Shown: positions 9,081 to 51,449, counted from the stretch's first letter. The stretch: DNA of 64,000 nt from an uncultured Clostridia bacterium (GCA_947630625.1 CANRIL010000011.1:2065-66064), one strand, 5' to 3'. The notes: generated by a model from the sequence alone, not told the origin. Made by a program: numbers and translations.

Positions 9081-9186
9081 TGCGCAAAAAAACTTTATTG
9101 TCGCAAAACAGCCCTTGAAAAACATGTCCGTATGTGTTATCATGTAGCCGTTAAAATATGCTTAATGCCCGGACGGGAGATAATAC

Positions 9187-10563
9187 ATGAATATCATCAT
9201 CGTAGGCGGCGGCAAGGTCGGCATTTCGATCGCCGAACGCCTCTCGTATGAGGAACACAATATAACGCTTGTCGACACCGACACCGAAGTGCTCACGGAG
9301 GCGCAGGAAACGCTCGACGTTCTGACCGTCGACGGCAACGGTGCCGCCATCGACACGCTTCGCCGCGCGGACGCCGGAAAGGGCGATGTCCTCATCGCCA
9401 TGACGGACGCGGACGAGAAAAATCTGCTCTGCTGCCTCGCCGCCAAAAAGCTCGGCTGCCGCCACACGATCGCGCGTGTCCGCGACCCGCAGTATTCGCG
9501 GCACGCCTCGTTTCTGCGCGACGACTTGGGGCTTTCAATGGTCATAAGCCCCGAACACATGGCGGCGAACGAAATTTACCGCATAATACAGTTCCCCTCA
9601 TTTTTGAAGCGCGACTCGTTTGACAAAGGGCGCGTCGATATCGTGGAGATGAAGATCTCGGAGGGCAGCCCGCTCGACGGGAAAAAACTCTACGAGGCGT
9701 CCGGGATACTCGGGCTCCGCGTCCTCATCTGCGCCGTCGAGCGCGACGACATGGTCACGATCCCAAACGGCAGCTTCACGCTTCGCGCCGGCGACAGGAT
9801 CACGGTCACGGCGGCGAGGATCGACCTTGCCGTACTCATAAAAAGCCTCGGGCTCGTGCGGCAGAAGATACGCGCCGTCCTTATGATCGGCTGCGGCAGG
9901 ATCGCCGAATATCTCACGGATGAGCTTCTGCGCTCCGGCGTCAGCGTCAAGGTCATAGAAAAGGACACAAAGCGCGCCGAGGAATTTCAGCTCCGCTTCC
10001 CGAAAGCGCTCGTCATCAACGGCAACGCCTCACAGCGCGGCTTCCTCGAAGCGGAAGGGATCGAGAGCTTTGACGCCGTTATAACGCTGACCGGTGTCGA
10101 CGAAGAAAACCTCATCATTTCGATGTATTGCAGCCACATGGGGATAAAGAAGACGGTCACGAAGATCGACCGCAACGAATACGCGCGCCTCTTTTCCGAC
10201 ACGGAGGTCGGCTCCGTCGTCTGCCCGAAGGAACTGACGGCGAACGAGATCATCCGCTACGTCCGCGCCATTTCGAACAGCGGCGAGGATTCGATCCGCG
10301 CCCTGCACCGCCTCGTTGACGGCAAGGCGGAGGCGCTCGAATTTCTTGTCACCGATCAGCTTCCCTACGTCGAAATACCGCTTGCCCGCCTCCGTTTCAA
10401 GCAAAACGTCCTGATAGCCTGCATCTCACGCTCAAATCAGGTCATAATCCCGAACGGCGACGACGTGCTCCGTCCCGGAGACACCGTCATCGTCGTCACG
10501 ACTGCCGACCGCACGGTCGGCGACCTGCGCGACATTTTTGAGCGTGACGCCGTGAAGAACTAA
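9187..10563 (+). CDS. trkA: Trk potassium uptake system, NAD-binding subunit TrkA (two RCK_N plus RCK_C repeats)
   Basis: MNIIIVGGGKVG and a second Rossmann motif LMIGCGRIAEYL, at the typical 458-aa length. It lies directly upstream of trkH. Confidence 0.9.
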   Translation: MNIIIVGGGKVGISIAERLSYEEHNITLVDTDTEVLTEAQETLDVLTVDGNGAAIDTLRRADAGKGDVLIAMTDADEKNLLCCLAAKKLGCRHTIARVRDPQYSRHASFLRDDLGLSMVISPEHMAANEIYRIIQFPSFLKRDSFDKGRVDIVEMKISEGSPLDGKKLYEASGILGLRVLICAVERDDMVTIPNGSFTLRAGDRITVTAARIDLAVLIKSLGLVRQKIRAVLMIGCGRIAEYLTDELLRSGVSVKVIEKDTKRAEEFQLRFPKALVINGNASQRGFLEAEGIESFDAVITLTGVDEENLIISMYCSHMGIKKTVTKIDRNEYARLFSDTEVGSVVCPKELTANEIIRYVRAISNSGEDSIRALHRLVDGKAEALEFLVTDQLPYVEIPLARLRFKQNVLIACISRSNQVIIPNGDDVLRPGDTVIVVTTADRTVGDLRDIFERDAVKN

Positions 10564-10573
10564 GGGGGCGCGC

Positions 10574-12028
10574 TTGAATTACAAAATAGTTTCAAATTAT
10601 CTCGGCAGGATCCTTCTGCTCGAGTCGATTACGATGCTCCCGTCGCTCATAATGGCGATTTTTGCGGACGGACTTATGCCGACCGTGGCGTTTGCAGTCT
10701 CGATAGCAGTCTGCGCGGGCGTCGGAGCCATTTTGATATTCTGCCTTAAGCCGAAGAACAGAAATATTTTTTCGCGCGAGGGATGCGTAATCGTCGCGCT
10801 TTCATGGATAGCAATATCCATTTTCGGCGCGCTGCCTATGACGATCTCCGGCGCTATCCCGTCGTTTGTCGACGCCGTGTTCGAGACTGTATCCGGATTT
10901 ACGACGACGGGGGCGACGATCCTTACCGACATCGAGTCGCTGCCGATGAGCGTTCTGTACTGGCGCTCGTTTACGCATTGGCTCGGCGGCATGGGAGTGC
11001 TCATTTTCCTGCTCGCGCTCGGTCCCGATGGGCACGGGAGCGGAATGCCGTTTCAGATAATGCGCGCCGAAAGCCCGACGCCGACGGCGGGCAAGCTCGC
11101 GCCGAAGCTGCACCTGACGGCGCGGATACTGTATTCGATATATCTCGGTCTAACCGTTTTGCAGATCATCATCCTCATATGCGGCGGAATGCCCGTCTTC
11201 GACGCGGTCACCGCGTCGTTCAGCACGGCGGGGACTGGCGGATTTTCAATAAAAAACGACAGCTTTGCTTCGTATAGCCCGTTCTGCCAGACGACACTTG
11301 CCGTTTTCATGCTCCTGTTCGGCGTAAACTTCAACATTTATTTCCTCGTTCTCATCGGGGAATTTCGCCGCGTCTTCAAAAACAGCGAGCTGCGGACGTA
11401 TCTTGCCATCATCGCGGTTTCAGTCGCCGCCGTGACCGTCAACGTGCTCAAGATGTTTGACTCGTTCGGCGAAGCTCTGCATCACGCGTTTTTCCAGGTC
11501 GTATCTATAATCACAACGACGGGCGGCACTACGCTCGATTATGAGCCGTGGCCTGAATTTTCACACGGCGTGCTGCTTTTGCTGATGGTGGTCGGCGCGT
11601 GTGCCGGTTCGACAGGCGGCGGCGTAAAGGTTTCGCGCCTTGTCATCATGTGGAAGGCGTTCCGCACGGAAATAAAGAAGCTCCTTCACCCGCACGCTGT
11701 TTCAACCATCGAAATGGACGGGGAGATCGTCGAGCGCAGGACTCTTTCCCGCTGCGGAGTTTTCTTCTTCATCTATATGGTGATCGTGACGCTGTCGACA
11801 GTACTTCTCGCGCTTGAGGGAACGGACATTGAAACAAATTTCAGCGCCGTGCTCGCGTGCCTGAATAACGTCGGCCCCGGCTTCGGGCGCGTGGGTCCCG
11901 CGATGGCGTACACGTGCTTTTCCCCCGCCGGGAAAATCCTTCTCACGTTCGATATGCTGCTCGGCAGGCTCGGACTTTTCCCGGTGCTGCTCCTGTTCGT
12001 GCCCGCAACATGGAACAAGCGGAAATAA
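10574..12028 (+). CDS. trkH: Trk/Ktr-type potassium transporter membrane subunit TrkH
   Basis: TTG start 10 nt after the trkA stop. Multi-pass protein with the selectivity-filter-like motifs SGFTTTGAT, STAGTGGFS and TTTGGT. Confidence 0.9.
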   Translation: MNYKIVSNYLGRILLLESITMLPSLIMAIFADGLMPTVAFAVSIAVCAGVGAILIFCLKPKNRNIFSREGCVIVALSWIAISIFGALPMTISGAIPSFVDAVFETVSGFTTTGATILTDIESLPMSVLYWRSFTHWLGGMGVLIFLLALGPDGHGSGMPFQIMRAESPTPTAGKLAPKLHLTARILYSIYLGLTVLQIIILICGGMPVFDAVTASFSTAGTGGFSIKNDSFASYSPFCQTTLAVFMLLFGVNFNIYFLVLIGEFRRVFKNSELRTYLAIIAVSVAAVTVNVLKMFDSFGEALHHAFFQVVSIITTTGGTTLDYEPWPEFSHGVLLLLMVVGACAGSTGGGVKVSRLVIMWKAFRTEIKKLLHPHAVSTIEMDGEIVERRTLSRCGVFFFIYMVIVTLSTVLLALEGTDIETNFSAVLACLNNVGPGFGRVGPAMAYTCFSPAGKILLTFDMLLGRLGLFPVLLLFVPATWNKRK

Positions 12029-12074
12029 AATCATGCGGCAGGCGTCCCCCCGGCGTCTGTCGCCGTCTTTGTGC

Positions 12075-12109
12075 GCCGGAAAATGTCCCGATCTTCCGGC
12101 GTCTTTTTT
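12075..12109 (+). terminator. Rho-independent terminator after trkH
   Basis: gccggaa..ttccggc is followed by gtcTTTTTT. Confidence 0.65.
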
Positions 12110-12129
12110 AAAAAAATTTATATTGCCTA

Positions 12130-12158
12130 TTGACAGTGCGCCCGCCTTGTGATATCAT
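12130..12158 (+). promoter_or_regulatory. SigmaA-type promoter of the SPFH-RHH operon
   Basis: TTGACA (12130-12135), a 17-nt spacer, then TATCAT (12153-12158). Confidence 0.65.
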
Positions 12159-12172
12159 TATGATATCACAAG
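12146..12172. promoter_or_regulatory. Perfect inverted repeat (12-bp arms, 3-nt spacer) overlapping the -10 element; candidate operator
   Basis: CTTGTGATATCA tta TGATATCACAAG. The arms are exact reverse complements. Confidence 0.7.
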
Positions 12173-12191
12173 AATATGAGAGGTGAATATT

Positions 12192-13229
12192 ATGAATGAG
12201 ATCGTTTTATCGGGAAAGAAAAACGGGATGGCGGCGCTCCTTATTTGCATCGCCGTGCTGCTCGCCGCGATCGCCGGGGTCGTGTTCGGCGCAATGGGGA
12301 TGGACGCCGCTGAGACGGCGGGGGAGGATACGCCCGTCCTGTACGCAGTGCTGTTCGCCGTTTCTCTTGTCATTTTCTGTACCGGATGGATACCGCTCTG
12401 CGGGCTGCGCGTGCTCGCCCCGAACGAGGCGCTCGTGCTGACGCTGTTCGGCAAATATGTCGGAACGCTTAAGGGCGACGGATTTTTCTGCGTCAACCCG
12501 TTCTGCGTCTCGGTGAACCCCGCCGCGAAGACGAAGCTGAAGCAGTCCGGCGACGTATCATCTGTTCAGAGCGCCGTTTCATCGGACGGAAACTCCATTT
12601 CTATCGACACTACTTCAAAAAAGCTGTCTCTCAAGATAATGACGCTCAACAACAGCCGCCAGAAGATCAATGACTGCCTCGGCAACCCGATCGAGATCGG
12701 AATTGCCGTGACATGGCGCATCGTAGACACCGCAAAGGCGGTCTTCAATGTCGACAACTATAAGGAATTCCTCTCGCTGCAGTGCGACAGCGCGCTCCGC
12801 AACATCGTCCGTCTCTACCCGTACGATGTCGCGCCGAACATAGACACGACCGGCGACGGAATTGCGGACGACGGCAGCCTGCGCGGCTCCTCCGAGCTCG
12901 TTGCCTCCCGCATACGCGACGAGATCCAGAACCGCGTTGACGAGGCTGGGATAGAGGTCGTTGAGGCGCGCATCACGTACCTCGCTTACGCGACCGAGAT
13001 CGCCGCCGTCATGCTCCAGCGCCAGCAGGCATCCGCGATCATAGACGCGCGCAAGATGATCGTTGACGGCGCGGTCGGCATGGTCGAGATGGCGCTCGAC
13101 CGCCTGGCGGAAAAAGGCACCGTAACGCTTGACGAGGAGAGAAAAGCCGCGATGGTGTCAAATCTGCTCGTTGTCCTCTGCGGGAACCATGACGCGCAGC
13201 CTGTGGTCAATTCCGGGAGTTTGTATTGA
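12192..13229 (+). CDS. SPFH/Band 7 (stomatin/prohibitin-like) domain membrane protein
   Basis: Two N-terminal hydrophobic spans are followed by an SPFH core, from [28 protein letters not shown] to [25 protein letters not shown] precedes ATG 12192 (the track gives GTG 12183). Confidence 0.8.
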
Positions 13230-13432
13230 TGTCTGACAACGAAAAGAAACAAGTTCCTTTAAGACTCTCGCCAAAACTGTACGCCGCGATAGCAGCGTGG
13301 GCGGAAGACGATTTCCGCTCCGTCAACGGGCAGATCGAATACCTTTTGACCGAGTGTGTCCGCCAGCGGAAGAAGAACGGCAAATACGTTTCCGACGAGA
13401 TCGACGTACCGCCTAAAATCGACATTGAATAA
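13226..13432 (+). CDS. Small ribbon-helix-helix (Arc/MetJ-like) DNA-binding protein
   Basis: 68 aa. [39 protein letters not shown] fits a beta-strand plus two-helix RHH pattern. Its start overlaps the SPFH stop by 4 nt. Confidence 0.6.
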
Positions 13433-13438
13433 CCGCAC

Positions 13439-13480
13439 GGGGAGGGCGCTCTCATAAACGAGGGCTGCCCTCCCCTTTGC
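13439..13480 (+). terminator. Hairpin terminator after the RHH gene
   Basis: ggggagggc (13439-13447) pairs with gccctcccc (13467-13475), followed by tttgc. The T-tail is weak. Confidence 0.5.
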
Positions 13481-13745
13481 ACGCCACGCCCCCCGTTTTC
13501 CTTTGCGTGCGGCGCATGCGCGGCGCACTGCGCCGCGCCTCCCGCGCACCATTGCCGTCCCCTCTCCATTTGAACGCGGCGTCCAACTGCTTCCCGCACT
13601 CCTTTGCCGCACTCCCTCCTTTGCACGCGATGCCAACTGTGCACCATTGCCTAACCCTTTTCCTTTGATCACGGCGCTCCGCTGCTCCCCGCACCCCTTT
13701 GCCGCCCTCCCCTTGCCGCGCCGCCCTTTTGCGGCAGCCGCGCGA
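13476..13745. repeat. C-rich (plus strand) degenerate repeat region with reiterated CCTTTGC motifs and a duplication of about 95 nt
   Basis: CC-TTTGC occurs 8 or more times. The unit starting caccattgcc at 13547 recurs at 13642 with, by eye, about three quarters identity over about 70 nt. C-runs at 13687-13712 fit (C3+N1-7)3C3+. Confidence 0.6.
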
Positions 13746-13779
13746 GAATACTGATTTGACCTAAAGCGAGCCGAAATTA

Positions 13780-13808
13780 TTGCATTTTTGCCGAAGATAT
13801 TTTATAAT
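13780..13808 (+). promoter_or_regulatory. Near-consensus sigmaA promoter upstream of the STAND NTPase gene
   Basis: TTGCAT (13780-13785), 17 nt, then TATAAT (13803-13808). Confidence 0.6.
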
Positions 13809-13890
13809 GAATTTCGGATGTGGTGCCAAAGCCGAGCCGAAATTTCCGGCGGCTTTACGACATAAACAAAACAAAAGGGCGGGGCCGCGA

Positions 13891-16800
13891 ATGATAAAGA
13901 TTTTTGTTTCAAGCACCTTCCGCGACATGCAGGCGGAGCGCGACGAAATACAGAAAAATATCGCCCCGCGTCTGCGCGCGGCGGCGCGCGAGTACGGGGA
14001 AGATGTCGAATTCTGCGATCTGCGCTGGGGAGTCGATACTTCCCTGCTCGGCGACGAAGAGAGCTCGAAAAAGGTCATGTCCGTGTGCCTTGACGAGATC
14101 GACAAGTGCAGGCCTTATATGCTCGTCCTTTTGGGCGAACGCTACGGCTGGATGCCGGACAGCAGGCTTTTGCTTGACACCGCGGCGAGAAAAAATTTTA
14201 CTCCGAGCTGCCCCGACGCGAGCGTGACCGCGCTTGAGATCGAATACGGCGCGCTTTCCTCCCCAGAGGCGCTGAAAAAAACTGTATTTATGTTCCGCGA
14301 CCCGATCCCTGGGGCGGGCATCGTATATAAAAGCGAGGACGACGAACACGCGCGCCATCTTTGCGAGCTCAAGGAAAAGATCCGTTCCCTTGCCGGGGAG
14401 AGAGTTTTTTCATATCAGGTCGGCTGGGACAGCGATGCCGGCGCGCCGTGCGGGCTCGAACAGTTTTCCGAAACGGTGACGGAGCAGTTTCTCGCCATTC
14501 TCGACGAAGATTTTGAAGCGTACAGGTCGCTCTCCGAAACAGGCAGGGAGCGCAGGCGGCACTGGAGCGTTATCGAAAGCAAATCATCGCAGTTTGCCGG
14601 ACGGCAGGAGCTGCTTAAACTTTGCCGCGAAAAGCTTGAAAGCAGGAGCCGCGCTCTGCTCGTTACGGGAGGCGCGGGGAACGGCAAAAGCACGCTTTGC
14701 GCCCGGCTGATAACGGACTACAGGGCGCGCGGCTGGTGTGTATTCCCATTCGTGTGCGGGAACGGCGGGGACGAAAAAACGGGGCTCGACGCGCTCATAT
14801 ACCTCGCTTTATCACTTGAGGAAGGTCTTAACGAAGAAGAGCGCCGCCAATTTGAGCAGATCGCGCACAGCGCCGCGCCGGAAAGCGAGGAGGCGGGCTG
14901 GTCGTTCTGGAACATACGCCTCGATATTCTTCTCAAAAAATTTTACAGCCCCGCCGGGAAAAAGGTGCTTTTCGCCGTCATCGGAGCCGAAAGATTTGAG
15001 CACGACGAAAGCACGGAAAAATTCAAATATATTCCGGAACTGAAAAATCAAGTTCTGCACGTCCTTGTGTGCTGCGACGACAAATATAAAACCGAATCGT
15101 TTCCCGGCCAAAAGTTGACTGTCCCGGAGCTGTCGGACGGCGAAAAAGAGTCCGTCATACGCGGGATCATGTCAAGCAGCGGCAAAGAGCTTGACATCTC
15201 CGTCATAGACGAGATCATGGGGAAAAAGCGCTCCTCCGTGCCGCTTTATTTGTCGCTTTTGACGAGGTGCCTGCTCACATTCGACAATGAAGACTTCGGG
15301 GCGATCAACGAGGGCGGAGGCGGAATGGACGCGATCTCCGGCTATATGAGAAATTTTGTCGCCGGACTGCCGGAGGATGAAGTCGGGCTGAGCCGCGTCA
15401 TCTTCCGGCGGCTCGCGCGGAGCGGCGGCACAGAGCTCATCACCGCCGCGATCGAATATATTGCCGCCTCGCGATTCGGTCTGCGCGAGCAGGACATAAG
15501 GGCGCTGCTCGGAGGTCGGGGGATTTCATGGAACCGCCTTGATTTTTCGCGGCTGATAGATTACAGCGCGCATTTCTTTATCGAAAACAACGGGTTGTTT
15601 GATTTTTCAGACGCCGCGTTCAAAGCTGCCGTGCGTTCGAGCTCCGATCTTCGGGAAAGAACCGCCGAGATATTCCTTTACATAAAATCCCTGCCGGACA
15701 CGGACGCGCTCAAAATCAGCGAGATCGTGTACTGCTGCCATGCGACGGACGACAAGGACCTTCTGATGCGTTTTCTCATCTCCGTCACGGACAGGGACGA
15801 TCGGGACGCGGCGCGAAAGGCGGCGCACAACATTTTAAATACAGATGTCTGCGTCTGGTTCATGCTGGCGATAAGGGACATTACCGATCCGAAGCTGCTG
15901 CTGCACATATATAATTTCTGGTGTCTTTACGTGATGGACGGCGTCGGCTCAAAGAGAAGAGACGAGCTTTCCGCCGCGCGCGTTATATGCGAGGCGCTTG
16001 CGGTGAAAGCCATGGAATTTGCGAGCAGCACGGGCGAGGAGATTTTCCGCTGCATGCTCTGCCTTCTCATGCAAAAAGAAGGCGAGCTGTTCATGAAGCT
16101 GAGAAACTTTCGTGACGCCGCCGGCGCGTTCAACAGCGCCTGCGTCAGGGCTGCCGAGCTGTATAAGGACACCGGGGGAAAAGAATACAAATACATTTTT
16201 GCAAACAGCGCGTTCCGTGCCGGCAAGGCGCATTCGGAGCTTTCCGGGTACAAGGACGCGGAGGATTTGTTTGATGCCGCGGAAAAAACGTTTGAAAGCC
16301 TGATCCGTGAAACGTCGGAGACGGACGCTGCGCTCGGATACTGCGAAGCAAAATATGAGCACGCGCTCGTTTGCTGGCAGCAAGGTCACGTCCTTGAGGC
16401 GGAAGGGCTGTGTCTTGACGCTGTCTCGATATACCGACAGCTTTACGTGATGAAATTCGCCGGTCTTCTGGGGGATGTCCGGCAAATGTCGTCTTACAAG
16501 AACGCGTGCGAGATGCTCAGTTATATTTTCGATCTGAAAAAAGGCTCGCCCGGCGCGCCGACAGGGGAGGAGGCTGCGGCTCTCGACTCCGAGATCAGGC
16601 GGCTCGAGCGTATGATAGAGGACCTTTTGTGGGACCCGATGCTTATACGCGAATACGCGCGCTCGCTTAAGAAATTCGGCGCGCTTTGCGACTCCGTCGG
16701 ATACAATATCGGCGCGCTGCACGATTACGTGCTGTGCGTCAACATGCTTCGCTGGGCGGCGGAAAACGGCGGCGGCTCGGTCTGCATCAAGGATTACTAT

Positions 16801-17208
16801 GCGGGCTGCTACGAGCTGGCGGGATTTTATAAGAAGATCGGGCAAAATGACTATGCCGTCAGATATTATCTTGAAGACATACGTTACAGACGGCAGGTTT
16901 TATCAGAATATCCGTTTTTCGGGAACGCGCTCATGTTCAGCGATCGCTGCGCGGCGCTCGGTCAGCTTTTTGTTGAGATCGGCAGCCTTTGGGCTGCGTA
17001 TGAAGCGTTCCGCGAGGCGGCTGTCTGCTTCGGCTCCGTTGACGACGCCCCAAAGGAACTCGCCGCCTCGCTTTCGGAACAGCGATACGCGCTGATGTAT
17101 GAGGCGGCCTCGTTGATCGAGCCGTGGCGGTACACGAGAGCGGCGTTTGAAGAAAATCAGCTCAGGGCAAAAAAGCTGCTCGGATGGGACGAGGTGCTTC
17201 GCTGGTGA
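13891..17208 (+). CDS. STAND-class P-loop NTPase with an N-terminal DUF4062 (TIR-like) domain and C-terminal TPR-like repeats; candidate NLR-like immune sensor
   Basis: MIKIFVSSTFRDMQAERDEI...LRWGVD...YMLVLLGERYGWMPD is the DUF4062 signature. Walker A is LLVTGGAGNGKSTLCARL. The helical repeat region from about aa 700 is TPR-like (for example YKDAEDLFDAAEKTFESL and YYAGCYELAGFYKKIGQNDYAVRYY). ATG 13891 replaces the track start at 13780. Confidence 0.75.
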   Translation: MIKIFVSSTFRDMQAERDEIQKNIAPRLRAAAREYGEDVEFCDLRWGVDTSLLGDEESSKKVMSVCLDEIDKCRPYMLVLLGERYGWMPDSRLLLDTAARKNFTPSCPDASVTALEIEYGALSSPEALKKTVFMFRDPIPGAGIVYKSEDDEHARHLCELKEKIRSLAGERVFSYQVGWDSDAGAPCGLEQFSETVTEQFLAILDEDFEAYRSLSETGRERRRHWSVIESKSSQFAGRQELLKLCREKLESRSRALLVTGGAGNGKSTLCARLITDYRARGWCVFPFVCGNGGDEKTGLDALIYLALSLEEGLNEEERRQFEQIAHSAAPESEEAGWSFWNIRLDILLKKFYSPAGKKVLFAVIGAERFEHDESTEKFKYIPELKNQVLHVLVCCDDKYKTESFPGQKLTVPELSDGEKESVIRGIMSSSGKELDISVIDEIMGKKRSSVPLYLSLLTRCLLTFDNEDFGAINEGGGGMDAISGYMRNFVAGLPEDEVGLSRVIFRRLARSGGTELITAAIEYIAASRFGLREQDIRALLGGRGISWNRLDFSRLIDYSAHFFIENNGLFDFSDAAFKAAVRSSSDLRERTAEIFLYIKSLPDTDALKISEIVYCCHATDDKDLLMRFLISVTDRDDRDAARKAAHNILNTDVCVWFMLAIRDITDPKLLLHIYNFWCLYVMDGVGSKRRDELSAARVICEALAVKAMEFASSTGEEIFRCMLCLLMQKEGELFMKLRNFRDAAGAFNSACVRAAELYKDTGGKEYKYIFANSAFRAGKAHSELSGYKDAEDLFDAAEKTFESLIRETSETDAALGYCEAKYEHALVCWQQGHVLEAEGLCLDAVSIYRQLYVMKFAGLLGDVRQMSSYKNACEMLSYIFDLKKGSPGAPTGEEAAALDSEIRRLERMIEDLLWDPMLIREYARSLKKFGALCDSVGYNIGALHDYVLCVNMLRWAAENGGGSVCIKDYYAGCYELAGFYKKIGQNDYAVRYYLEDIRYRRQVLSEYPFFGNALMFSDRCAALGQLFVEIGSLWAAYEAFREAAVCFGSVDDAPKELAASLSEQRYALMYEAASLIEPWRYTRAAFEENQLRAKKLLGWDEVLRW

Positions 17209-17251
17209 GCGCCGTTATCATCACTTTAAGACACATAAAGGAGACTTTTCT

Positions 17252-17710
17252 ATGATAAATATAATTTTCGTCTGTCACGGCAACATATGCCGCTCCCCGA
17301 TGGCAGAATTTGTCCTCCGGGACATGACAAAAAAGCGCCGCATCGAACATAACTTTAATATCTGCTCGGCGGCAACGAGCACGGAGGAGATCGGGAACGA
17401 CATGCACTACGGCAGCCGCGACAAGCTGCGCCGCGAGGGCATCCCGTTTGAGCGCAGACACGCAAGACAGATAACGCGGCGGGACTGCGACGCGGCGGAT
17501 TATATAATCGTGATGGATTCCTACAACATAAGGAATCTGGAGCGCGTCGTCGGCACCGGGTACAGGGAAAAGACTTACCGGCTCCTCGACTTCACCGCGC
17601 GCCGCGGCGAGGACATCGCCGACCCGTGGTATACGGGCGACTTTGACACCGCGTACCGCGACATCGTTGAGGGGTGCGAGGGGCTGCTCTCGGAGCTGGA
17701 GAAAAAATAA
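17252..17710 (+). CDS. Low-molecular-weight protein-tyrosine (or arginine) phosphatase
   Basis: MINIIFVCHGNICRSPMAE carries the C-X5-R-S P-loop, and DPWYTGDF provides the general-acid Asp. AAAGGAG RBS precedes ATG 17252. Confidence 0.85.
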   Translation: MINIIFVCHGNICRSPMAEFVLRDMTKKRRIEHNFNICSAATSTEEIGNDMHYGSRDKLRREGIPFERRHARQITRRDCDAADYIIVMDSYNIRNLERVVGTGYREKTYRLLDFTARRGEDIADPWYTGDFDTAYRDIVEGCEGLLSELEKK

Positions 17711-17792
17711 GCCGCCTTTTTCATCATTGTAAAACGGAAGATTTTATGATAGACTTTATTTTGCAGACCGGAAAGTGACGGGGGGATTTAAA

Positions 17793-19079
17793 ATGACCTA
17801 TCGCGGATTTGAAATCAGCAGAATACAGTATCCGGACGCGCCTTCGGGCTGGGTCGACGGAGTCTACTGCGAAAGAGAACCGAGGAAAACTCCGCTCGCG
17901 GCGGACGCGGAGCTGCCGCTTTCGTTTGCATGCCGCGCCTTCCGGGAGCGCGAGGAAACGGGTTGGGGCGTGTTTGACTACGTTGACGGCGTCGCCTTTT
18001 CGTTTCCGTCCTCGCTTTCAGACTGGGAGGTCGCCGTCACCGTCAGTTCGCGCTCGGACGCGTGCCGCGTCTCCGTCTTCTGCGACGGGATAAAGGCTGC
18101 CTCCGGCATCGAAATAACGTCCGAGCCGACGGAAATTAAATTTAAGGTCCGTTCAGCCGACGATATCTCGACGTTTTATCTTTCACCCGAATACGGCGAG
18201 GGCAAAGAGGAGGCCGAAGATGAATTCACGGTCTTCGACATCTCGCGCTCACCGCTCCCGCAGCGGCAGCCGGGAAAAAAGCCGACGATGTTTTTAGCGT
18301 CCGATTCGACAGTTCAGACATACGATCCTTACTACTACCCGCAGACCGGCTGGGGCGAAGTGCTTTATAGATTTTTTGCCGACGCGGAGCTCGTCCGCGA
18401 ATATCGCCCGGAAGGCAGCACGTATTCGCAGTGCCGCGCTTATGAGCTGCCCGGCGTCACGATCGAGAACCGCTCGATCGGCGGGCGTTCGTCGCGCTCG
18501 TTCTTCCTCGAAGGCAAGCTCTCCGAGCTTTTGGCGCGCGCCGCGTGCGGCGACTTTCTCATGATACAGTTCGGCCACAACGACTGCACACGTGCGCGCC
18601 CGAACCGATACGTTTCGCCGGATGGGTATGAAGCCTATATCCGCCGCTATATCCGCGCCGCGCTCGCGCGCGGGATCACGCCGATACTTGTCACGCCCGT
18701 CAACCGCCGCAGCTGCGACGAAAACGGCATTTTTTCGCCGTCCTTCCCCGATTATTCCGAGCGGCTCCGTGCGCTTTCGGAGCAGTATAAAACCCCTCTC
18801 ATCGACCTCGCCTCAGAAAGCCTCCGGCTGCTTTCCCGCGTTGGGGCGGAGCGCTCAAAGCGCCTTTTCCTGTTTGCCGATGAAGGGGAATACGAAGGCG
18901 CATACGCCAAAGGCGTCTCCGACAACACGCACCTTTCGCGCACCGGCGCGCTCCTTTTCGCCTGTCTTGCCGCCGGGATGCTCCGGGGCGCGCAGGATGA
19001 AAGGCTCAGTCAGATCGGCGCGCTCGTCGACGAAAATCGGATATCTGCCATAACGGAGGCGCTCCTTGGAAAACTTTGA
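17793..19079 (+). CDS. SGNH/GDSL hydrolase resembling rhamnogalacturonan acetylesterase, with an extra N-terminal domain
   Basis: SGNH blocks are present: FLASDSTVQ (I), IGGRSSRSF (II), QFGHNDC (III) and DNTHLS (V). Confidence 0.7.
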   Translation: MTYRGFEISRIQYPDAPSGWVDGVYCEREPRKTPLAADAELPLSFACRAFREREETGWGVFDYVDGVAFSFPSSLSDWEVAVTVSSRSDACRVSVFCDGIKAASGIEITSEPTEIKFKVRSADDISTFYLSPEYGEGKEEAEDEFTVFDISRSPLPQRQPGKKPTMFLASDSTVQTYDPYYYPQTGWGEVLYRFFADAELVREYRPEGSTYSQCRAYELPGVTIENRSIGGRSSRSFFLEGKLSELLARAACGDFLMIQFGHNDCTRARPNRYVSPDGYEAYIRRYIRAALARGITPILVTPVNRRSCDENGIFSPSFPDYSERLRALSEQYKTPLIDLASESLRLLSRVGAERSKRLFLFADEGEYEGAYAKGVSDNTHLSRTGALLFACLAAGMLRGAQDERLSQIGALVDENRISAITEALLGKL

Positions 19080-19956
19080 TCTTTGCTCCCCCGCGTTCAT
19101 ACGCGAGCTGATGGAGCGCTTCAACATCTCGTTCCGCCACGAGTTCGGGCAGAATTTTCTCATAAACGGCGCAATTCCCAAAAAAATTGCCGCCGCCTCC
19201 GTCGGCGGCAGCGGCGGCTGCGTGCTTGAGATAGGCCCCGGCATCGGGACCATGACGCGCGAGCTCTCGCGCCTCGCCGACACCGTTGCCGCGGTCGAGA
19301 TTGACCGCTCGCTGATCCCGGTCCTCGAATACACGCTTTCCGACTGCGAAAACGTCACCGTCATAAATAACGACATTATGAAATGCGATATCGACGCGCT
19401 GACGCGCGATGTTTTCTGTGGGCGAGAATATCACGTCTGCGCAAATCTGCCCTACTACATCACGACGCCTATAATAATGAAGCTGCTCGAAGAAGGCGGG
19501 GAACGGCTCCGCTCGGTCACGATCATGATCCAGACCGAGGTCGCCGCCCGCATCACCGCCGCGCCCGGCACATCCGAATACGGCTCCATCACCGCCTCCG
19601 TCGCCTACTTCGGCACGGCAAAAAGGCTTTTCACCGTCTCGCCCGGCAGCTTTCTGCCGGCTCCGAAAGTGACCTCGACCGTCGTCAGGATCGACATTTA
19701 CCGCCCGGACGAGCGCCCCGTAAAGCCCCGCGACGAAAAAGTCATGTTCCGCGTCATATCAGCCGCTTTTGGGCAGCGCCGAAAGACGCTGCCGAACGCG
19801 CTTTCCGCCGGATTCCCGGCATTATCAAAATCGGACGCCTCAGATCTTCTCGCCTCGCTCGGGTACGACCCGCGCGTTCGCGGCGAGGCGCTTGGCACAG
19901 CCGATTTTGCCAAAATCGCGGATGAGATCGTGAATCGAGGCGAAGCGAATGGATAA
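19066..19956 (+). CDS. rsmA: 16S rRNA (adenine1518/1519-N6)-dimethyltransferase
   Basis: FGQNFL, SAM motif VLEIGPGIGTMT, and NLPYYITTPI. Confidence 0.9.
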   Translation: MENFDLCSPAFIRELMERFNISFRHEFGQNFLINGAIPKKIAAASVGGSGGCVLEIGPGIGTMTRELSRLADTVAAVEIDRSLIPVLEYTLSDCENVTVINNDIMKCDIDALTRDVFCGREYHVCANLPYYITTPIIMKLLEEGGERLRSVTIMIQTEVAARITAAPGTSEYGSITASVAYFGTAKRLFTVSPGSFLPAPKVTSTVVRIDIYRPDERPVKPRDEKVMFRVISAAFGQRRKTLPNALSAGFPALSKSDASDLLASLGYDPRVRGEALGTADFAKIADEIVNRGEANG

Positions 19957-21760
19957 ATACGGAATTTTAAAGACATATTTCGGCTACGACACCTTCCGCC
20001 CCGGGCAGGAACAGATCGTGGACGCTCTCGCGAGCGGGCGCGACGTTTTGGCCGTCATGCCGACAGGCGCGGGAAAATCTATCTGCTACCAGACCCCGGC
20101 GCTCCTTTCGGACGGCATCACGGTCGTAGTCTCGCCGCTCATCTCCTTAATGAAGGATCAGGTCGCCTCTCTCATCAAATCCGGCGTCCCCGCCGCGTAT
20201 CTCAACAGCTCGCTGACGTACGAACAATATATGCTCGCGCTCTCGCGGATGCAGGCCGGGAGATATAAGATCGTCTACGTCGCGCCGGAGCGCCTTTCAA
20301 GCCCGCGATTTCTTGAGGTCTGCCGGTCTGTCAGCGTTTGCATCGTCGCGGTCGACGAGGCGCACTGCGTTTCTCAGTGGGGGCAGGATTTCAGACCCGA
20401 TTATCTCAAAATAGCCGACTTCATACATTCGCTGCCCCGCCGTCCCGTCGTCGGCGCGTTTACCGCGACGGCGACCGACCGCGTTCGCGACGACATACGC
20501 AAAATTCTTGACCTCGACTCCCCCGTCACGGTCACGACGGGATTTGACCGGCCGAATCTGTTTTTCAGCGTGCTGACGCCGGAAAAGAAAACGGAAAAGC
20601 TGCTCTCGCTTATACGCGAACGGCGCGGCAGGTCAGGCATAATATACTGCGCGACGCGGCGCTCGGTCGAGGACGTTTGCGAAATGCTGCTGCGCGCCGG
20701 AGTCCCGGCGACGCGATACCATGCCGGGCTCACCGCCGAGGAACGGCAGAAGAATCAGGACAGCTTCGTCTCCGACCTCACCCCCGTCATCGTCGCGACA
20801 AACGCCTTCGGCATGGGGATCGACAAATCAAACGTCTCATTCGTCATCCACTACAACATGCCGAAAAACATAGAGAGCTACTATCAGGAAGCAGGACGTG
20901 CGGGACGCGACGGCGAACCGGCGGAATGTATCCTGCTTTACGGTCCCCACGACATAATCACCGCAAAATTCCTCATCAATAATTCCGAACCGAATCCCGA
21001 CCTCTCGGAAGAGGAACAAGCATCCGTCCGCCAAAGCGAGCTTTCAAGGCTCGAAGATATGATACGGTACGCAACCGGTACCGGCTGCCTGCGCGCCTTT
21101 ATCCTGCGCTATTTCGGGGAGGCGACCGGCGACTTTTGCGGCGCGTGCTCAAACTGCCTTGAATCATACGAATCGGAGGACATAACGGAGGACGCGAAAT
21201 GCGTGCTCCGCTGCGTTGCCGAGACGCAGCAGCGCTACGGCATGTCGCTGATCTCGGAAGTCCTGAAGGGGAGCAGCAGCGAACGTATTTCCCGCCTTGA
21301 CAGGGCGGGATCGTTCGGCGCGCTCCGAACATACACGCTCGCCAAAATAAAAAACATCATAAGCGCGCTTTTGACGGACGGGTTTCTCACCGCGGACGGC
21401 GAATATCCCGTGCTCACGCTGACTGAACGCTCCGCAGACGTTCTTTACGGCGGAGCGCACGTGAAAATGAAGGTGCTCGGCAAAAAGAAGAAGGAGCCGG
21501 AGATGAAAAAAACTTCTTCGTCCCAAGCCCTCACAGGCGAGGACAGCGAACTGCTCACAGAGCTCAAGCGGCTTCGCGCCCGGCTCGCGCGGGAGGAAAA
21601 CGTCCCCGCCTACATCATCTTTACGGACGCGACACTAACGGACATGTGCCGCAAAAAGCCGCGCGACATGACGGAAATATTGCGCGTAACCGGCGTCGGC
21701 GAGCGCAAACGCGACAAATACGGGATGCAGTTTCTCGGCGTCATAGAAAAATTCGTCTGA
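19949..21760 (+). CDS. recQ: ATP-dependent DNA helicase RecQ
   Basis: FGYDTFRPGQEQIV, Walker A MPTGAGKS, DEAH box VDEAHCVSQWGQDFRPDY, RecQ-Ct zinc cluster (CGACSNC), and a C-terminal HRDC-like domain. It overlaps rsmA by 8 nt. Confidence 0.92.
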   Translation: MDKYGILKTYFGYDTFRPGQEQIVDALASGRDVLAVMPTGAGKSICYQTPALLSDGITVVVSPLISLMKDQVASLIKSGVPAAYLNSSLTYEQYMLALSRMQAGRYKIVYVAPERLSSPRFLEVCRSVSVCIVAVDEAHCVSQWGQDFRPDYLKIADFIHSLPRRPVVGAFTATATDRVRDDIRKILDLDSPVTVTTGFDRPNLFFSVLTPEKKTEKLLSLIRERRGRSGIIYCATRRSVEDVCEMLLRAGVPATRYHAGLTAEERQKNQDSFVSDLTPVIVATNAFGMGIDKSNVSFVIHYNMPKNIESYYQEAGRAGRDGEPAECILLYGPHDIITAKFLINNSEPNPDLSEEEQASVRQSELSRLEDMIRYATGTGCLRAFILRYFGEATGDFCGACSNCLESYESEDITEDAKCVLRCVAETQQRYGMSLISEVLKGSSSERISRLDRAGSFGALRTYTLAKIKNIISALLTDGFLTADGEYPVLTLTERSADVLYGGAHVKMKVLGKKKKEPEMKKTSSSQALTGEDSELLTELKRLRARLAREENVPAYIIFTDATLTDMCRKKPRDMTEILRVTGVGERKRDKYGMQFLGVIEKFV

Positions 21761-21765
21761 AAAAA

Positions 21766-21804
21766 GGGAGGATGTGCTTTCTTTCGCGAAAGCTCCATCC
21801 TCCC
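21766..21804. terminator. Bidirectional hairpin between convergent recQ and the RpiB-like gene
   Basis: gggaggatg...catcctccc with an inner gctttc/gaaagc stem. Confidence 0.65.
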
Positions 21805-21819
21805 ACATTTTATGTTTTC

Positions 21820-22458
21820 TTATTCGGCAAGTATTTTCTCAACGGCCGCGCGAAGCTTCGGGCACTTGCAGTCTGCAAAGAAGAGCTCCTTGAATCTGCT
21901 GCCGGAAAGCGCGCCCTTTACAAGCTCGCGGTCGAGCTCCGGCAAAATCTCTTCGAGCGGGCGGTACGTCTTTGACTTCACCTCGTCGAGTATTTTCTTG
22001 TTCGCCTTTTCGGGAACGGCGCGCTCGCGCGGATAGCCCTGACCGGGCTCCTCGCAGAACAGCTTCTCGAATATGTATTCGAGATTGAGGTCGCCGCCCC
22101 AGCCGAATCCCTTCGCAAACGGGATTGCGATCGCGTTTCCGTCGTTGATCTGCGCGAACGTGTACGCGTCGAGCGGGTCTTCGACGTGTCCGCATATGAC
22201 GCCCGGAAACGAATTGCACGCCAGCATCGCGCCCTCGCCCGTGCCGCAGCCGGTTATGACGTAATCGGCAGCGCCCGAATTGAGCAGGACGGAGGCGAGT
22301 ATGCCGATCTGCACGTACGTGAGCTGGTTGTCGTCCGGCGAGTACATCCCGTAGTTGACGACCTCGTGCCCCATAGGTTCGACGACGCGGCGCAGCGCGC
22401 CCTCGATCACGGCGTTTTTCGCCGCCTGGCTGTTTTCATTGATAAGTGCGATTTTCAT
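21820..22458 (-). CDS. RpiB/LacA/LacB-family sugar isomerase, long (about 210 aa) form; DhuI-like
   Basis: MKIALINENSQ...ITGCGTGEGAMLACNSFPGV...DGNAIAIPFAKGFGWGG. It is adjacent to and co-oriented with a KduD-like SDR. Confidence 0.75.
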   Translation of the reverse strand: MKIALINENSQAAKNAVIEGALRRVVEPMGHEVVNYGMYSPDDNQLTYVQIGILASVLLNSGAADYVITGCGTGEGAMLACNSFPGVICGHVEDPLDAYTFAQINDGNAIAIPFAKGFGWGGDLNLEYIFEKLFCEEPGQGYPRERAVPEKANKKILDEVKSKTYRPLEEILPELDRELVKGALSGSRFKELFFADCKCPKLRAAVEKILAE

Positions 22459-22537
22459 CTTGTTGACACTCCTTTTTTATTGCTTACGCGTTTTCGGCGC
22501 AAATATAGACTAGGCGAATAATATCCTTACGCGCACG

Positions 22538-23332
22538 TCACGGCTGCCTGCCGATATAGGCGAGAATGCCGCCGTCCACATATAGGATGTGGCCGTTCAC
22601 GAAATCGGACGCCTCGGACGCGAGGAACACGGCGGGGCCCTTCAGATCGTCGGGTGTGCCCCAACGCTCCGCCGGAGTTTTCGAGATTATGAACGCGTCA
22701 AACGGATGGCGGCTGCCGTCCGGCTGAGGCTCGCGCAGCGGAGCCGTCTGCGGCGTGGCGATATATCCCGGCCCTATGCCGTTGCACTGGATATTATATT
22801 TTCCGTACTCGGAGGCGATATTTCGCGTCAGCATCTTGAGCCCGCCCTTCGCGGACGCGTAAGCTGACACCGTTTCCCTGCCGAGCTCGCTCATCATCGA
22901 GCAGATATTGATTATCTTGCCGTGACGGCGCTCCATCATCGACGGAAGCACGGCCTTTGAAACGATATACGGCGCTACAAGGTCGATGTCGACGACCTCG
23001 CGGAATTCGGATACCTGCATCTCGTGCATCGGTATGCGCTTTATTATCCCGGCGTTGTTGACGAGAATGTCTACGGCGCCGAGCGTTTTTTCAATGTCCG
23101 CAACCATTTCGGCGACGGCGCCCTCGTCCGTCACATCGCAGATGTACCCCTTCGCCGTAATGCCGCGCTTTTCGTATTCGGCGAGCGCAGAGTTCAGGTG
23201 CCCTTCTCCTCGGCAGTTGAACGCGATCTTCGCGCCCGCCTCCGCGAGCGCTTCCGCGATCGCGAAGCCGATCCCGTAAGCGGCGCCCGTCACAAGCGCG
23301 GTTTTTCCTTCAAGCGAAAACAGATTTTTCAT
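22538..23332 (-). CDS. Short-chain dehydrogenase of the KduD / gluconate 5-dehydrogenase / DhuD type
   Basis: TGAAYGIGFA cofactor loop, NNAG, and catalytic S...YASAKGG (YxxxK). The start MKNLFSLEGK at 23332 is preferred over the track start at 23359. Confidence 0.8.
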   Translation of the reverse strand: MKNLFSLEGKTALVTGAAYGIGFAIAEALAEAGAKIAFNCRGEGHLNSALAEYEKRGITAKGYICDVTDEGAVAEMVADIEKTLGAVDILVNNAGIIKRIPMHEMQVSEFREVVDIDLVAPYIVSKAVLPSMMERRHGKIINICSMMSELGRETVSAYASAKGGLKMLTRNIASEYGKYNIQCNGIGPGYIATPQTAPLREPQPDGSRHPFDAFIISKTPAERWGTPDDLKGPAVFLASEASDFVNGHILYVDGGILAYIGRQP

Positions 23333-23497
23333 ATAATTACCGCCCCTATTCCTTAGCATTATATTAAGTATATCAGAAAAAACTGCCGTTGTAAATGACT
23401 TTGTTCCACAGATACCCGTTTTGGGCTTGAAAAACGGGCGAGTATGGTATATAATACTGTGAGAGAATGAAATTCGCGGGGAAACGGAGGACCTTTT

Positions 23498-24595
23498 ATG
23501 CTCGCAGCCGTCAGAAATTTTATAATAGCATTTTTGATCGCCGCTTTGGTCTTCGGTGCTATCGCGTCATTTATCACGATATTCATCGCCGAAAACGTCA
23601 TCGGCATCGCGGACACGCCCGAAACCGACTCGATGGGCGACGAAACGATAACCCCGCCGGAGGACACGCGCCCCGTCAACCCGGATAGACCTGCCCCGCC
23701 TTCATACCCGGACATAGAAGGGGAATCCTTCTCGGTCCTTCTGATCGGGACCGACTATCGCCCCGACGATTTTGTAGATTATATCGAGGACTTTTCAAAC
23801 AAAGCGTTTACCGGCTCGACTCTCGGATATCTCAAAAAGCCGATCCGGACGCAGAACGCCGACATGATAATCCTCGTCACCGTCTCCGAGGAGACGCGGC
23901 AGATCGTCTTCACCTCGATCCCGTCCAACACGCGCATAACTGTAAACGGCAGCTACCGCCTGCTCGGCACGCGCTACGACAAGGGCGGCGTTGACGAGAT
24001 CGTTGACTTTGTAAATTACCTGACGGCCGTTCCGGCAGATTTCTACATCAAGGCGAACATCACGGACGCCGGCTCCATCATCGACCTTATAGACGGCGTC
24101 TCCATCAACGTCCCCGTCGACGTGATGAACCCGTACTACAACCCGATGTGGGTGGAAGAACTCGCCCCGTTTTCGGGGATCACGGGAGAGCGCGACTTTG
24201 AGACGAGGATCGCGATCGAGGCGGGCGAGCGTACGATCGACTCTTCCAACATCTTCGCCCTCATGCACTACCGCACCGAGCGCGCGTCTTCAAGCGAGCG
24301 TGACTTCGTCGTAATGGAGCTTGCAAGGCAGACGCTGAAAAAAGCGGTCAGCGCCGAATACCTCAACCGCGCGCCGGAAATTTTCGCAAAGATAATGAAG
24401 CTCACGGACTCGAACATGACCGTCGGCGACCTTACGTCAAATATCGAATTTTTCCGCCACTATAACGAATTCTCGATCGTGACGCTCACATATCCCGGAA
24501 CGTATTCGACGCTTGACGGCGAGGCGTGCTTCGTCCCCGACCTGACCGAGGCTTACGAACTGTTCCGCTCATATCGCGGCGTCGGACTTGAATAA
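23498..24595 (+). CDS. LytR-CpsA-Psr (LCP) family cell-wall glycopolymer transferase
   Basis: N-terminal TM anchor, then FSVLLIGTDYR...NADMIILVTV...IPSNTRI, which is typical of the LCP extracellular domain. Confidence 0.7.
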   Translation: MLAAVRNFIIAFLIAALVFGAIASFITIFIAENVIGIADTPETDSMGDETITPPEDTRPVNPDRPAPPSYPDIEGESFSVLLIGTDYRPDDFVDYIEDFSNKAFTGSTLGYLKKPIRTQNADMIILVTVSEETRQIVFTSIPSNTRITVNGSYRLLGTRYDKGGVDEIVDFVNYLTAVPADFYIKANITDAGSIIDLIDGVSINVPVDVMNPYYNPMWVEELAPFSGITGERDFETRIAIEAGERTIDSSNIFALMHYRTERASSSERDFVVMELARQTLKKAVSAEYLNRAPEIFAKIMKLTDSNMTVGDLTSNIEFFRHYNEFSIVTLTYPGTYSTLDGEACFVPDLTEAYELFRSYRGVGLE

Positions 24596-24614
24596 ACCCG
24601 AAAGGATAAAATAT

Positions 24615-25994: not shown

Positions 25995-26004
25995 AAAACA
26001 CTCA

Positions 26005-26049
26005 GGGGAGCCTCCAATTTAAGAAGCTCCCCGCTTTTTAAAAAATAAA
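26005..26049 (+). terminator. Rho-independent terminator after glyQS
   Basis: ggggagc...gctcccc is followed by gcTTTTT. Confidence 0.65.
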
Positions 26050-26065
26050 TATGGGAGAAAAGGTC

Positions 26066-33798: not shown

Positions 33799-33848
33799 GT
33801 TAAATATACTTTGTCCATTCTTTATGAATGTAAATAGAGGTTATGAGC

Positions 33849-48835: not shown

Positions 48836-49348
48836 TCAAGCGCGGACGGTGAAAAATTTGAGAAGTTCTCTGCCGGACTCCGGCATTCCACGTTTCATCC
48901 ATTCGATCATCCAGCCAAATATCCCATATGCCCAAAACGATTTCATGTATGCTTCGATATTTGTCATTTCAGGAGTTATTTTTATAGTATTAATAATTGT
49001 TTCCTGCATGATCGAGGCCATTCCTGCCTGATAAAGAATGGTATAAAACTCTTTATGATCCCTGTAAAAATCAAATAAAGAGGGAAAAAGCGTTTCCGGT
49101 GAAGACTCCGGATTCGCTTCGTAAAGCTTCCCCCACTCTTTAATGAGCCGATCGGATTCTTCCCGCAGAATATCCTCTTTTGTTTGGAAATTACGGTAAA
49201 ATGAAACTCTCCCGATCTGCGCTTTTTGCGTTAGTTCGGTTATTGAAATATCAGCAATAGACTTTTCTTTCAATAGTTCCAACAGGGCGTTTGTGATTTG
49301 GCGCTTTACATATGTGTTCTTTTGCTCGTTGTTCATGAGCCGATACAA
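48836..49348 (-). CDS. TetR/AcrR-family transcriptional regulator
   Basis: The N-terminal HTH is ISITELTQKAQIGRVSFYRNFQTKEDIL. It is divergent from the hydrolase genes. Confidence 0.85.
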   Translation of the reverse strand: MYRLMNNEQKNTYVKRQITNALLELLKEKSIADISITELTQKAQIGRVSFYRNFQTKEDILREESDRLIKEWGKLYEANPESSPETLFPSLFDFYRDHKEFYTILYQAGMASIMQETIINTIKITPEMTNIEAYMKSFWAYGIFGWMIEWMKRGMPESGRELLKFFTVRA

Positions 49349-51446: not shown

Positions 51447-51449
51447 AAT

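Follow-up and report, generated by a model that had tools for sequence, protein, structure and literature searches.

We describe a single gene in a 64,000-nucleotide stretch of DNA (hereafter the window) from an uncultured Clostridia bacterium (GCA_947630625.1 CANRIL010000011.1:2065-66064), which encodes a 1105-residue protein that joins an N-terminal DUF4062 (NIR) domain to a NACHT-like STAND NTPase and a C-terminal TPR-like solenoid. We consider it probable, at roughly two chances in three, that this gene is a single-protein, NLR-like sensor of phages or other mobile elements that acts by abortive infection. A reading of the window from its sequence alone had put forward a candidate NLR-like immune sensor, and our analysis supports that proposal because the identity of the domains, the modelled architecture, the accessory status of the gene, with empty sites in relatives, and the genomic contexts of its homologues all agree. 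The N-terminus falls within DUF4062, the centre of the protein has STAND character, and the gene does not belong to a conserved core.

The open reading frame (ORF) is intact and runs on the + strand from an ATG at position 13891, giving a protein that begins with MIKIFVSSTF. The ORF listing extends it upstream to a TTG (13780..17208, + strand), a start that would yield 1142 residues and that we dropped, since the N-termini of all homologues line up residue for residue with MIKIFVSSTF (pattern MKxIF[VI]SSTF) and thus identify 13891 as the true start. The translation contains every peptide string quoted in the sequence-only reading (MIKIFVSSTFRDMQAERDEI, LRWGV, LLGERYGWMP, GGAGNGKST and VLFAVIGAERFEHDE), which had correctly described a single ORF of 1105 codons. 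An AlphaFold2 model of the whole protein, built on an alignment of 58 sequences, reached a mean predicted local distance difference test (pLDDT) score of 86.2 and a predicted template-modelling (pTM) score of 0.66, and it arranges an alpha/beta N-domain (residues 1-~215), a P-loop NTPase, helical domains with a winged helix, and finally a series of paired helices. Pfam, the AlphaFold model and Foldseek place effector, STAND module and C-terminal repeat region together in one polypeptide and, with the profile matches to PDB entries, bear out the proposed tripartite NLR-like layout. When 22 family members were scanned one by one with Pfam (E<=1e-5), DUF4062 was found in all 22, NPHP3_N in 17, TPR_12 in 14, nSTAND1 in eight and NACHT in five. 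The family architecture is thus DUF4062, NACHT-like STAND NTPase and TPR, of which the window protein is a divergent member; residue conservation was counted on an alignment of 112 relatives. Pfam detected no DNA-binding or other output domain in the window protein besides the NADase-type (NAD+ glycohydrolase) domain, and NCBIfam assigned the protein to no informative family.

The N-terminal domain matches Pfam DUF4062 (PF13271) over residues 3-91 with 50.9 bits, where the gathering score is 24.7, which confirms the domain named in the sequence-only reading. A sequence search of the PDB gave one strong match, 11gz_A from human TEP1 (E 1.6e-17, residues 2-199), which strengthened to E 2e-32 when the family profile was used as query; in a pairwise comparison, the two domains share 32% identity over 209 residues. 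Aligned to 11gz_A, residues R11, K61, R84 and E116 of the window protein correspond to TEP1 R908, R954, R976 and E1008. The underlying offset of 893 was verified, positions 15, 61 and 83 of 11gz_A being arginines as R908, R954 and R976 require, and position 115 being E1008. E116 (encoded at 14236-14238), which also occupies the position of PsAvs2 E108 and KpSwz E97, is invariant in 112 of 112 relatives, as is R84, and the lysine in place of R954 is nearly invariant among them; R11, too, is invariant or almost so. In TEP1 itself, mutation of R908 or R976 reduces activity (bioRxiv 10.64898/2026.05.01.722283). The isolated N-domain was modelled with high confidence (pLDDT 90.2, pTM 0.89) as alternating beta and alpha elements, with a beta-hairpin before the last helix; according to Osinski et al. 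(10.64898/2026.05.01.722283), such a hairpin is specific to TEP1 relative to Swarozyc.

Published work gives this domain a defined chemistry. DUF4062 has been characterised as a TIR-like NAD+ (nicotinamide adenine dinucleotide) glycohydrolase, renamed NIR, which produces ADP-ribose and nicotinamide, and as the effector domain through which Swarozyc, Vulcan, Vesta and the Pseudomonas protein PsAvs2 act against phages (10.64898/2026.05.01.722283, 10.64898/2026.09.04.749371); Ibarra-Chavez et al. added Evangelion to these systems (bioRxiv 10.64898/2026.06.25.731849). In PsAvs2, Vulcan, Vesta, Swarozyc and Evangelion, NAD+ depletion and phage protection each depend on the equivalent glutamate (10.64898/2026.09.04.749371, 10.64898/2026.05.01.722283, 10.64898/2026.06.25.731849). 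According to a published figure, 20% of DUF4062 genes overall lie near defence genes, compared with 3.9% expected. The earlier view of DUF4062 as TIR-like therefore finds support in the homology to TEP1 and in the 2026 papers, and not in a fold search of our own. Its accompanying statement that the domain had no experimentally defined activity has been overtaken by the 2026 preprints, which show both NAD+ hydrolysis and an anti-phage effector role; likewise, the suggested novel effector chemistry is superseded, because characterised DUF4062/NIR proteins split NAD+ into ADP-ribose plus nicotinamide.

The central P-loop NTPase (GGAGNGKST) seen in the sequence-only reading is confirmed, and the model, Foldseek and the Pfam matches of the family mark it as STAND-type. 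For the window protein itself, Pfam scores lie just under the cutoffs for NPHP3_N (23.7 against 24.8) and nSTAND1 (22.0 against 27.1), and NACHT reaches 12.7 against a cutoff of 26.7 (E 0.12); AAA_16 and nSTAND3 also match the P-loop region below cutoff. In the AlphaFold model, a beta-strand (255-260) leads into the P-loop and another (359-364) lies at the Walker B position, a winged-helix beta-hairpin occupies residues 563-572, and the nucleotide-binding, helical, winged-helix and repeat parts follow one another in that order. Foldseek of the whole model against the PDB returned 6mfv, a STAND-TPR protein, as top match (E 1.6e-9), followed by SAMD9 and MalT; this search is dominated by TPR proteins and informs on the STAND-TPR architecture only.

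The sequence-only reading had singled out the putative Walker B region (VLFAVIGAERFEHDE) as atypical, and the alignment shows in what way. Across the family, the Walker B consensus is of NACHT type (hhhhD-[AG]-x-D-Q-L), with the aspartate present in 109 of 112 relatives; an isoleucine takes its place only in the window protein (Ile364) and in its two closest homologues, P0001 and P0002. Three residues further on lies an acidic position that 98 of the 112 sequences fill with Asp and 13 with Glu; the window protein has Glu367 there. The three proteins that have the Asp-to-Ile change in common are full-length and share no more than 45-53% identity over 100% of their length; the change is therefore old and has been kept, which argues against simple decay. 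We suggest that proteins of this Walker-B-less subclade bind nucleotide and use binding as a conformational switch without turnover. There are precedents among Avs proteins: activation of SeAvs7 requires nucleotide binding and not hydrolysis, and KpAvs8 carries degenerate Walker motifs (PMC13581612), while a Walker A mutation abolishes defence by EcAvs2 (PMC13601566).

The C-terminal part had been described as about 400 residues of TPR-like repeats, and structure supports this for some 410 residues that Pfam fails to recognise in the window protein. The AlphaFold model shows about 19 antiparallel paired helices of about 20 residues each over residues 690-1097, mostly with pLDDT above 90. Foldseek matches of this solenoid include LGN/Pins (target-normalised TM-score 0.5-0.6), OGT and the TPRs of MalT, and the family profile finds LGN among PDB sequences at 1e-10. 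Pfam TPR matches are weak in the window protein (TPR_10 E 0.39, TPR_7 E 0.75) and strong in its relatives (TPR_12, TPR_1, TPR_10). A search of 1.84 billion representative proteins with residues 640-1105 gave just two matches below E 1e-10, namely P0002 and a 374-residue fragment. By these searches, the presumed sensor is nearly an orphan, and with almost no relatives its trigger cannot be deduced by homology to the Avs proteins that sense terminase, portal or capsid.

Comparison with related genomes shows that the gene is accessory. It is flanked 5' by TrkA, TrkH, Band_7 and a 67-residue RHH protein, and 3' by LMWPc, a GDSL esterase, KsgA and RecQ, in agreement with the placement between an SPFH-RHH pair and housekeeping genes that had been read from the sequence. 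A closer relative, GCA_947632285.1 (contig L092), is 82% identical in nucleotide sequence across window positions 9094-13446. Blastn aligns L092 9908-14241 with window 9094-13446 and L092 14334-14744 with window 17261-17677, which leaves about 92 bp in the relative opposite window positions 13447-17260. In L087, L088 and L090/L091, the order TrkA-TrkH-Band_7-RHH-LMWPc-GDSL-KsgA is kept, with LMWPc following 56-139 bp after RHH; the GDSL orthologues of these lineages are 55-63% identical to that of the window. The site is thus clearly empty in four related lineages. No convincing target-site duplications or terminal (inverted) repeats were found around the 3.8-kb insert, which in the window carries no mobility genes of its own; a 14-nt imperfect inverted match (13666-13679 / 17207-17220), considered as an insert end, is probably due to chance.

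The protein is rare and its family patchily distributed. Its 90%-identity cluster consists of itself and one fragment of 146 residues, the best full-length relative among 185,579 species-representative genomes is 33% identical, and a scan of species-representative genome contigs found no orthologue whose identity exceeded 41% over a local segment. The closest homologue, P0001 (52% identity), has genes for TnpV, TnpW, a serine recombinase, DUF3801 and DUF6017 as neighbours, a context that, judging by these annotations, resembles a conjugative transposon. The next, P0002 (45%), adjoins genes for a TIR_2 protein, DUF1810 and NUDIX. The wider family comprises 247 loci in species representatives, mostly metagenome-assembled genomes (MAGs) annotated as gut or rumen Clostridia, among them Lachnospiraceae, Oscillospiraceae and Ruminococcus. 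In a scan of 127 neighbouring ORFs at 19 homologue loci, matches were obtained to PifA, ThsB-like TIR, PD-T4-6, DolB, QatA/IetA-type ATPases and PDC families. From sequenced plasmids, a tblastn search retrieved only two distant DUF4062 domains; from phages it retrieved none. Some genomes hold two or three family paralogues on separate contigs, such as L013, L014 and L022 in one Lachnospiraceae MAG, and the pairs L042/L061, L059/L067 and L064/L073; several paralogues per MAG suggest a lineage-specific expansion, which is typical of NLR-like receptor families.

From these features, a mode of action can be proposed. In an uninfected cell, the protein would be an autoinhibited monomer. Binding of an invader-derived protein to the C-terminal TPR-like solenoid would free the NACHT-like STAND module, which could then oligomerise in its NTP-bound state; since this subclade has an isoleucine for the Walker B aspartate, the switch is expected to be driven by binding of the nucleotide and not by its hydrolysis. 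Oligomerisation would cluster the N-terminal NIR domains, and the clustered domains would hydrolyse NAD+ via E116, so that NAD+ is depleted and the infected cell arrests. The predicted NADase activity, its dependence on oligomerisation, the defence phenotype and an invader protein as trigger are all drawn by analogy from characterised systems.

Of these systems, PsAvs2 from Pseudomonas chlororaphis (Le Mouellic et al. 10.64898/2026.09.04.749371) is likewise a single-gene protein with a NIR domain that carries the catalytic glutamate, a STAND module and a TPR-type sensor. Its output is hydrolysis of NAD+ that yields ADP-ribose plus nicotinamide, with growth arrest, and the same may be expected of the window protein. 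Unlike PsAvs2, the window protein matches no Avs model, its NTPase is NACHT/NPHP3_N-like and has lost the Walker B aspartate, its sensor has almost no relatives, so that terminase sensing cannot be assumed, and its host is a gut Clostridia-type bacterium rather than a proteobacterium. The label Avs-like that the sequence-only reading attached to the protein thus holds for the effector-STAND-TPR layout and not for the sequence. Swarozyc, Evangelion and Vulcan share the effector domain and its catalytic glutamate and are single-gene, NAD+-depleting abortive-infection systems; they combine DUF4062 with an auxiliary or HEAT-repeat domain and lack the STAND NTPase of the window protein. Swarozyc is activated by assembly on the phage portal, Vulcan by a small phage protein and Evangelion by replication-associated processes. 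With bNACHT and other NLR-like STAND defence proteins, the window family has in common the effector-NTPase-repeat layout, the NACHT-type Walker B and the occurrence of several paralogues in some genomes, and differs from them in that the Pfam NACHT model reaches only E 0.12 on the window protein and is found in just five of 22 relatives.

Human proteins offer a second set of comparisons. Relative to the TEP1 NIR domain (PDB 11gz; Osinski et al. 10.64898/2026.05.01.722283), the equivalents of E1008, R908 and R976 are kept and R954 is replaced by lysine (K61). As in TEP1, the modelled N-domain has a beta-hairpin before its last helix, and a NACHT-like NTPase directly follows NIR. NPHP3 and TTC41 have the same NIR-NACHT-TPR order, and Pfam NPHP3_N and TPR_NPHP3 match members of the window family. 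Unlike TEP1, NWD1, NWD2, NPHP3 and TTC41, however, the window protein is the product of a bacterial accessory gene and lacks TROVE, vWA and WD40 domains, and we see no evidence of vault or ciliary roles.

Several observations speak against an immune, NAD+-depleting function. The window protein and its clade are known here from sequences and models, and PADLOC found no Avs/AVAST model in the window protein at E<=1, matching it at P-loop level to PDC-S73 and mad8 only. Among neighbouring genes, PADLOC produced only the generic cross-matches RecQ-to-DpdF and KsgA-to-mad2; the gene is therefore as solitary as the sequence-only reading had stated, and the idea of a defence island at this locus was rejected. 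The defence-family neighbours of homologues come from a scan without control and are suggestive at most. Foldseek of the isolated N-domain model against the PDB gave nothing below E 1e-3, only generic flavodoxin-like folds, with the best TIR entry, TIR-STING 9lmq, at rank 9 (E 0.011). The TEP1 NIR structure was absent from these matches and may post-date that structure library; since this search returned no significant match, the label TIR-like rests on the sequence homology to TEP1 and on the published work. Loss of the Walker B aspartate could mean that function has been lost. Finally, the Pfam model closest to the NTPase is NPHP3_N, and the DUF4062 domains of human NPHP3, NWD1 and NWD2 showed no NADase activity in vitro under the conditions tested (10.64898/2026.05.01.722283); a conserved catalytic glutamate would thus not by itself guarantee such activity.

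The inactivity of these three human domains despite their conserved glutamate, together with the NPHP3_N-like NTPase, would fit an immune or conflict sensor whose NIR domain makes a nucleotide-derived signal, or serves as an oligomerisation or interaction scaffold, instead of depleting NAD+, and the original authors speculate on signalling or scaffold roles, such as have been proposed for some animal TIR and NIR domains (10.64898/2026.05.01.722283). We think this unlikely for the window protein: the insert holds no partner gene able to read a signal, the downstream LMWPc gene is already present in the relatives with an empty site and is therefore not such a partner, the catalytic glutamate and both activity-linked arginines are strictly conserved, and all bacterial NIR systems tested to date deplete NAD+. 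The genomic contexts could also be explained if the protein served the biology of a mobile element, as an addiction or exclusion module or as a weapon between elements, and was left in the chromosome after the element decayed. A conjugative-transposon-like element carries the closest homologue as cargo, and the window copy is inserted without mobility genes and shows an apparent structural polymorphism at its left edge. Cargo status does not discriminate, however, as defence genes are often carried by such elements; sequenced plasmids and phages show no relatives beyond distant DUF4062 domains, and we judge this explanation quite improbable. Its molecular mechanism would in any case be identical to the one proposed for a host immune sensor.

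That the gene is a decaying or inactive relic, its switch disabled by the loss of the Walker B aspartate and its persistence a matter of chance, seems very improbable to us. The D-to-I replacement, the STAND Pfam scores just below their cutoffs and the non-significant TPR matches point in this direction, yet the same substitution in three full-length proteins of 45-53% identity implies that purifying selection acted over a long time once the change had occurred. Moreover, the ORF is unbroken, its catalytic and P-loop residues are preserved, the model has good confidence along the whole chain, and there are functional Avs proteins with degenerate Walker motifs (PMC13581612). We give hardly any weight to the idea that this is a STAND signalling protein outside immunity, with a housekeeping or regulatory function comparable to that of MalT and AfsR in transcription. 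Some STAND-TPR proteins do regulate transcription, the structural matches comprise MalT and 6mfv, and the locus is otherwise housekeeping; the only output-type domain, however, is the NADase-type domain, and the gene is very rare and missing from close relatives.

The architecture of the protein and the chemistry predicted for it have precedents in work of 2026, including the answer to the question of what DUF4062/NIR domains catalyse; its variant features are the loss of the Walker B aspartate and the orphan sensor. If the proposed abortive-infection mechanism is true, the gene adds a NACHT-like clade from gut Clostridia, which is not Avs2-like, to the newly described immune receptors with NIR effectors. 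The naturally replaced Walker B residue, conserved as isoleucine, would offer a direct test of whether NLR-like activation needs NTP hydrolysis, and identification of the trigger of a sensor with so few relatives would add to the invader molecules known to be sensed by bacteria. With a domain order like that of NPHP3 and TTC41 and an N-domain 32% identical to the NADase domain of TEP1, bacterial members could also be tractable models for the poorly understood human NIR-NACHT proteins. A more specific proposal, which we put forward tentatively and regard as doubtful in its entirety, is that the window protein, P0001 and P0002 form a Walker-B-less subclade within a gut-Clostridia family of NIR-NACHT(NPHP3_N-type)-TPR proteins, and that this subclade operates a hydrolysis-independent switch. 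Its near-orphan sensor would recognise a trigger class outside those of the Avs families known so far, which might be a protein from phages or conjugative elements of Clostridia. The family as a whole would have the NIR-NACHT module, TEP1-type inserts included, in common with eukaryotic NPHP3, TTC41 and TEP1, and would thus be a candidate for the nearest bacterial kin of these enigmatic proteins.

The leader ahead of the gene measures 458 bp and contains the unusual repeat region that the sequence-only reading had noted and that repeat finding confirmed. Within it, a stretch of 80 nt is directly repeated (13537-13616 / 13632-13711, 76% identity), and there are also short tandem arrays of 12-15 nt. 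An Rfam search of the region gave nothing credible (best match Ms_AS-1, 17.8 bits against a gathering score of 37), and ORFs of 63-83 residues within it were rejected as genes, being low-complexity translations of GC-rich repeats. The near-consensus promoter previously attributed to the gene stands in part: the -10 element is a perfect TATAAT (13803-13808), whereas the -35 element TTGCAT (13780-13785) agrees with TTGACA in only three of six positions, and a consensus promoter scan did not list the pair. This candidate promoter lies between the copies of a 19-nt direct repeat, CC(T)AAAGC(C)GAGCCGAAATT, at 13760-13778 and 13826-13844 with a spacing of 66 nt; the 11-nt core of the repeat occurs exactly at these two sites only within the window. 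The two copies could form an operator pair. The repeat is absent upstream of homologues, and we found no evidence there for a conserved operator.

Coordinates of the features discussed (positions in the window)
Feature	Position	Strand	Basis or remark
Accessory insert of ~3.8 kb: repeat-rich leader and DUF4062-STAND-TPR gene	13447..17260	.	comparison with related genomes
C-rich non-coding repeat region with CCTTTGC-type motifs	13474..13750	+	repeat finding, TRF
Candidate sigma-70-type promoter, TTGCAT - 17 nt - TATAAT	13780..13808	+	read from sequence
Complete gene, DUF4062/NIR - STAND NTPase - TPR-like, 1105 aa	13891..17208	+	stop codon 17206-17208
NIR (DUF4062) TIR-like predicted NADase effector domain, residues 1-215	13891..14535	+	Pfam PF13271, TEP1 homology
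STAND NTPase module, residues ~230-690: nucleotide-binding domain, helical domain, winged helix, second helical domain	14578..15960	+	
Walker A / P-loop GGAGNGKST, residues 260-268	14668..14694	+	G263, G265 and K266 invariant in 112/112
Degenerate Walker B strand VLFAVI-GAE, residues 359-367	14965..14991	+	Ile364 for Asp; Glu367 kept
TPR-like alpha-solenoid, residues ~690-1105, presumed ligand sensor	15958..17205	+	AlphaFold model, Foldseek

A metagenome contig (L002) is 99.99% identical to window positions 13569-27208. Its left flank (1-1007) carries a 5'-truncated C_GCAxxG_C_C ORF, covering positions 21-118 of the Pfam model only, and an unannotated ORF of 219 residues; these replace RHH, Band_7 and TrkH, and the breakpoint at 13569 lies inside the repeat region. 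Either the assembly is chimeric at the repeat, or the same population contains a second arrangement. GC skew is positive over window positions 14000-17000 (+0.06 to +0.12) and through 17001-18000, and turns negative again from about 18 kb; the genes on the 5' side have negative skew on the same strand. This switch is consistent with a foreign origin of the DUF4062-STAND-TPR gene.

The Band_7/SPFH gene and the overlapping 67-residue RHH-like gene (12192-13432) are syntenic as a pair in L087, L088, L090 and L092; the pair is conserved backbone and not part of the insert. Downstream, the RecQ-type helicase gene (19949-21760; DEAD, Helicase_C, RQC and HRDC domains), which PADLOC DpdF models match with 659 bits, is absent from the syntenic spot in L087, L088 and L090, where other genes directly follow KsgA. 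RecQ may be a second accessory insertion, or the DpdF score may be a generic cross-match of RecQ proteins. Two further regions of the window, 33800-36700 and 49000-52000, have a GC content of 40-47%, compared with about 57-60% elsewhere, and contain no defence genes by PADLOC. Genes for an ABC ATPase and an FtsX-type permease lie in the first region; the second holds genes for a TetR regulator, two alpha/beta-hydrolase esterases and an HSP20. Both regions were likely acquired horizontally.

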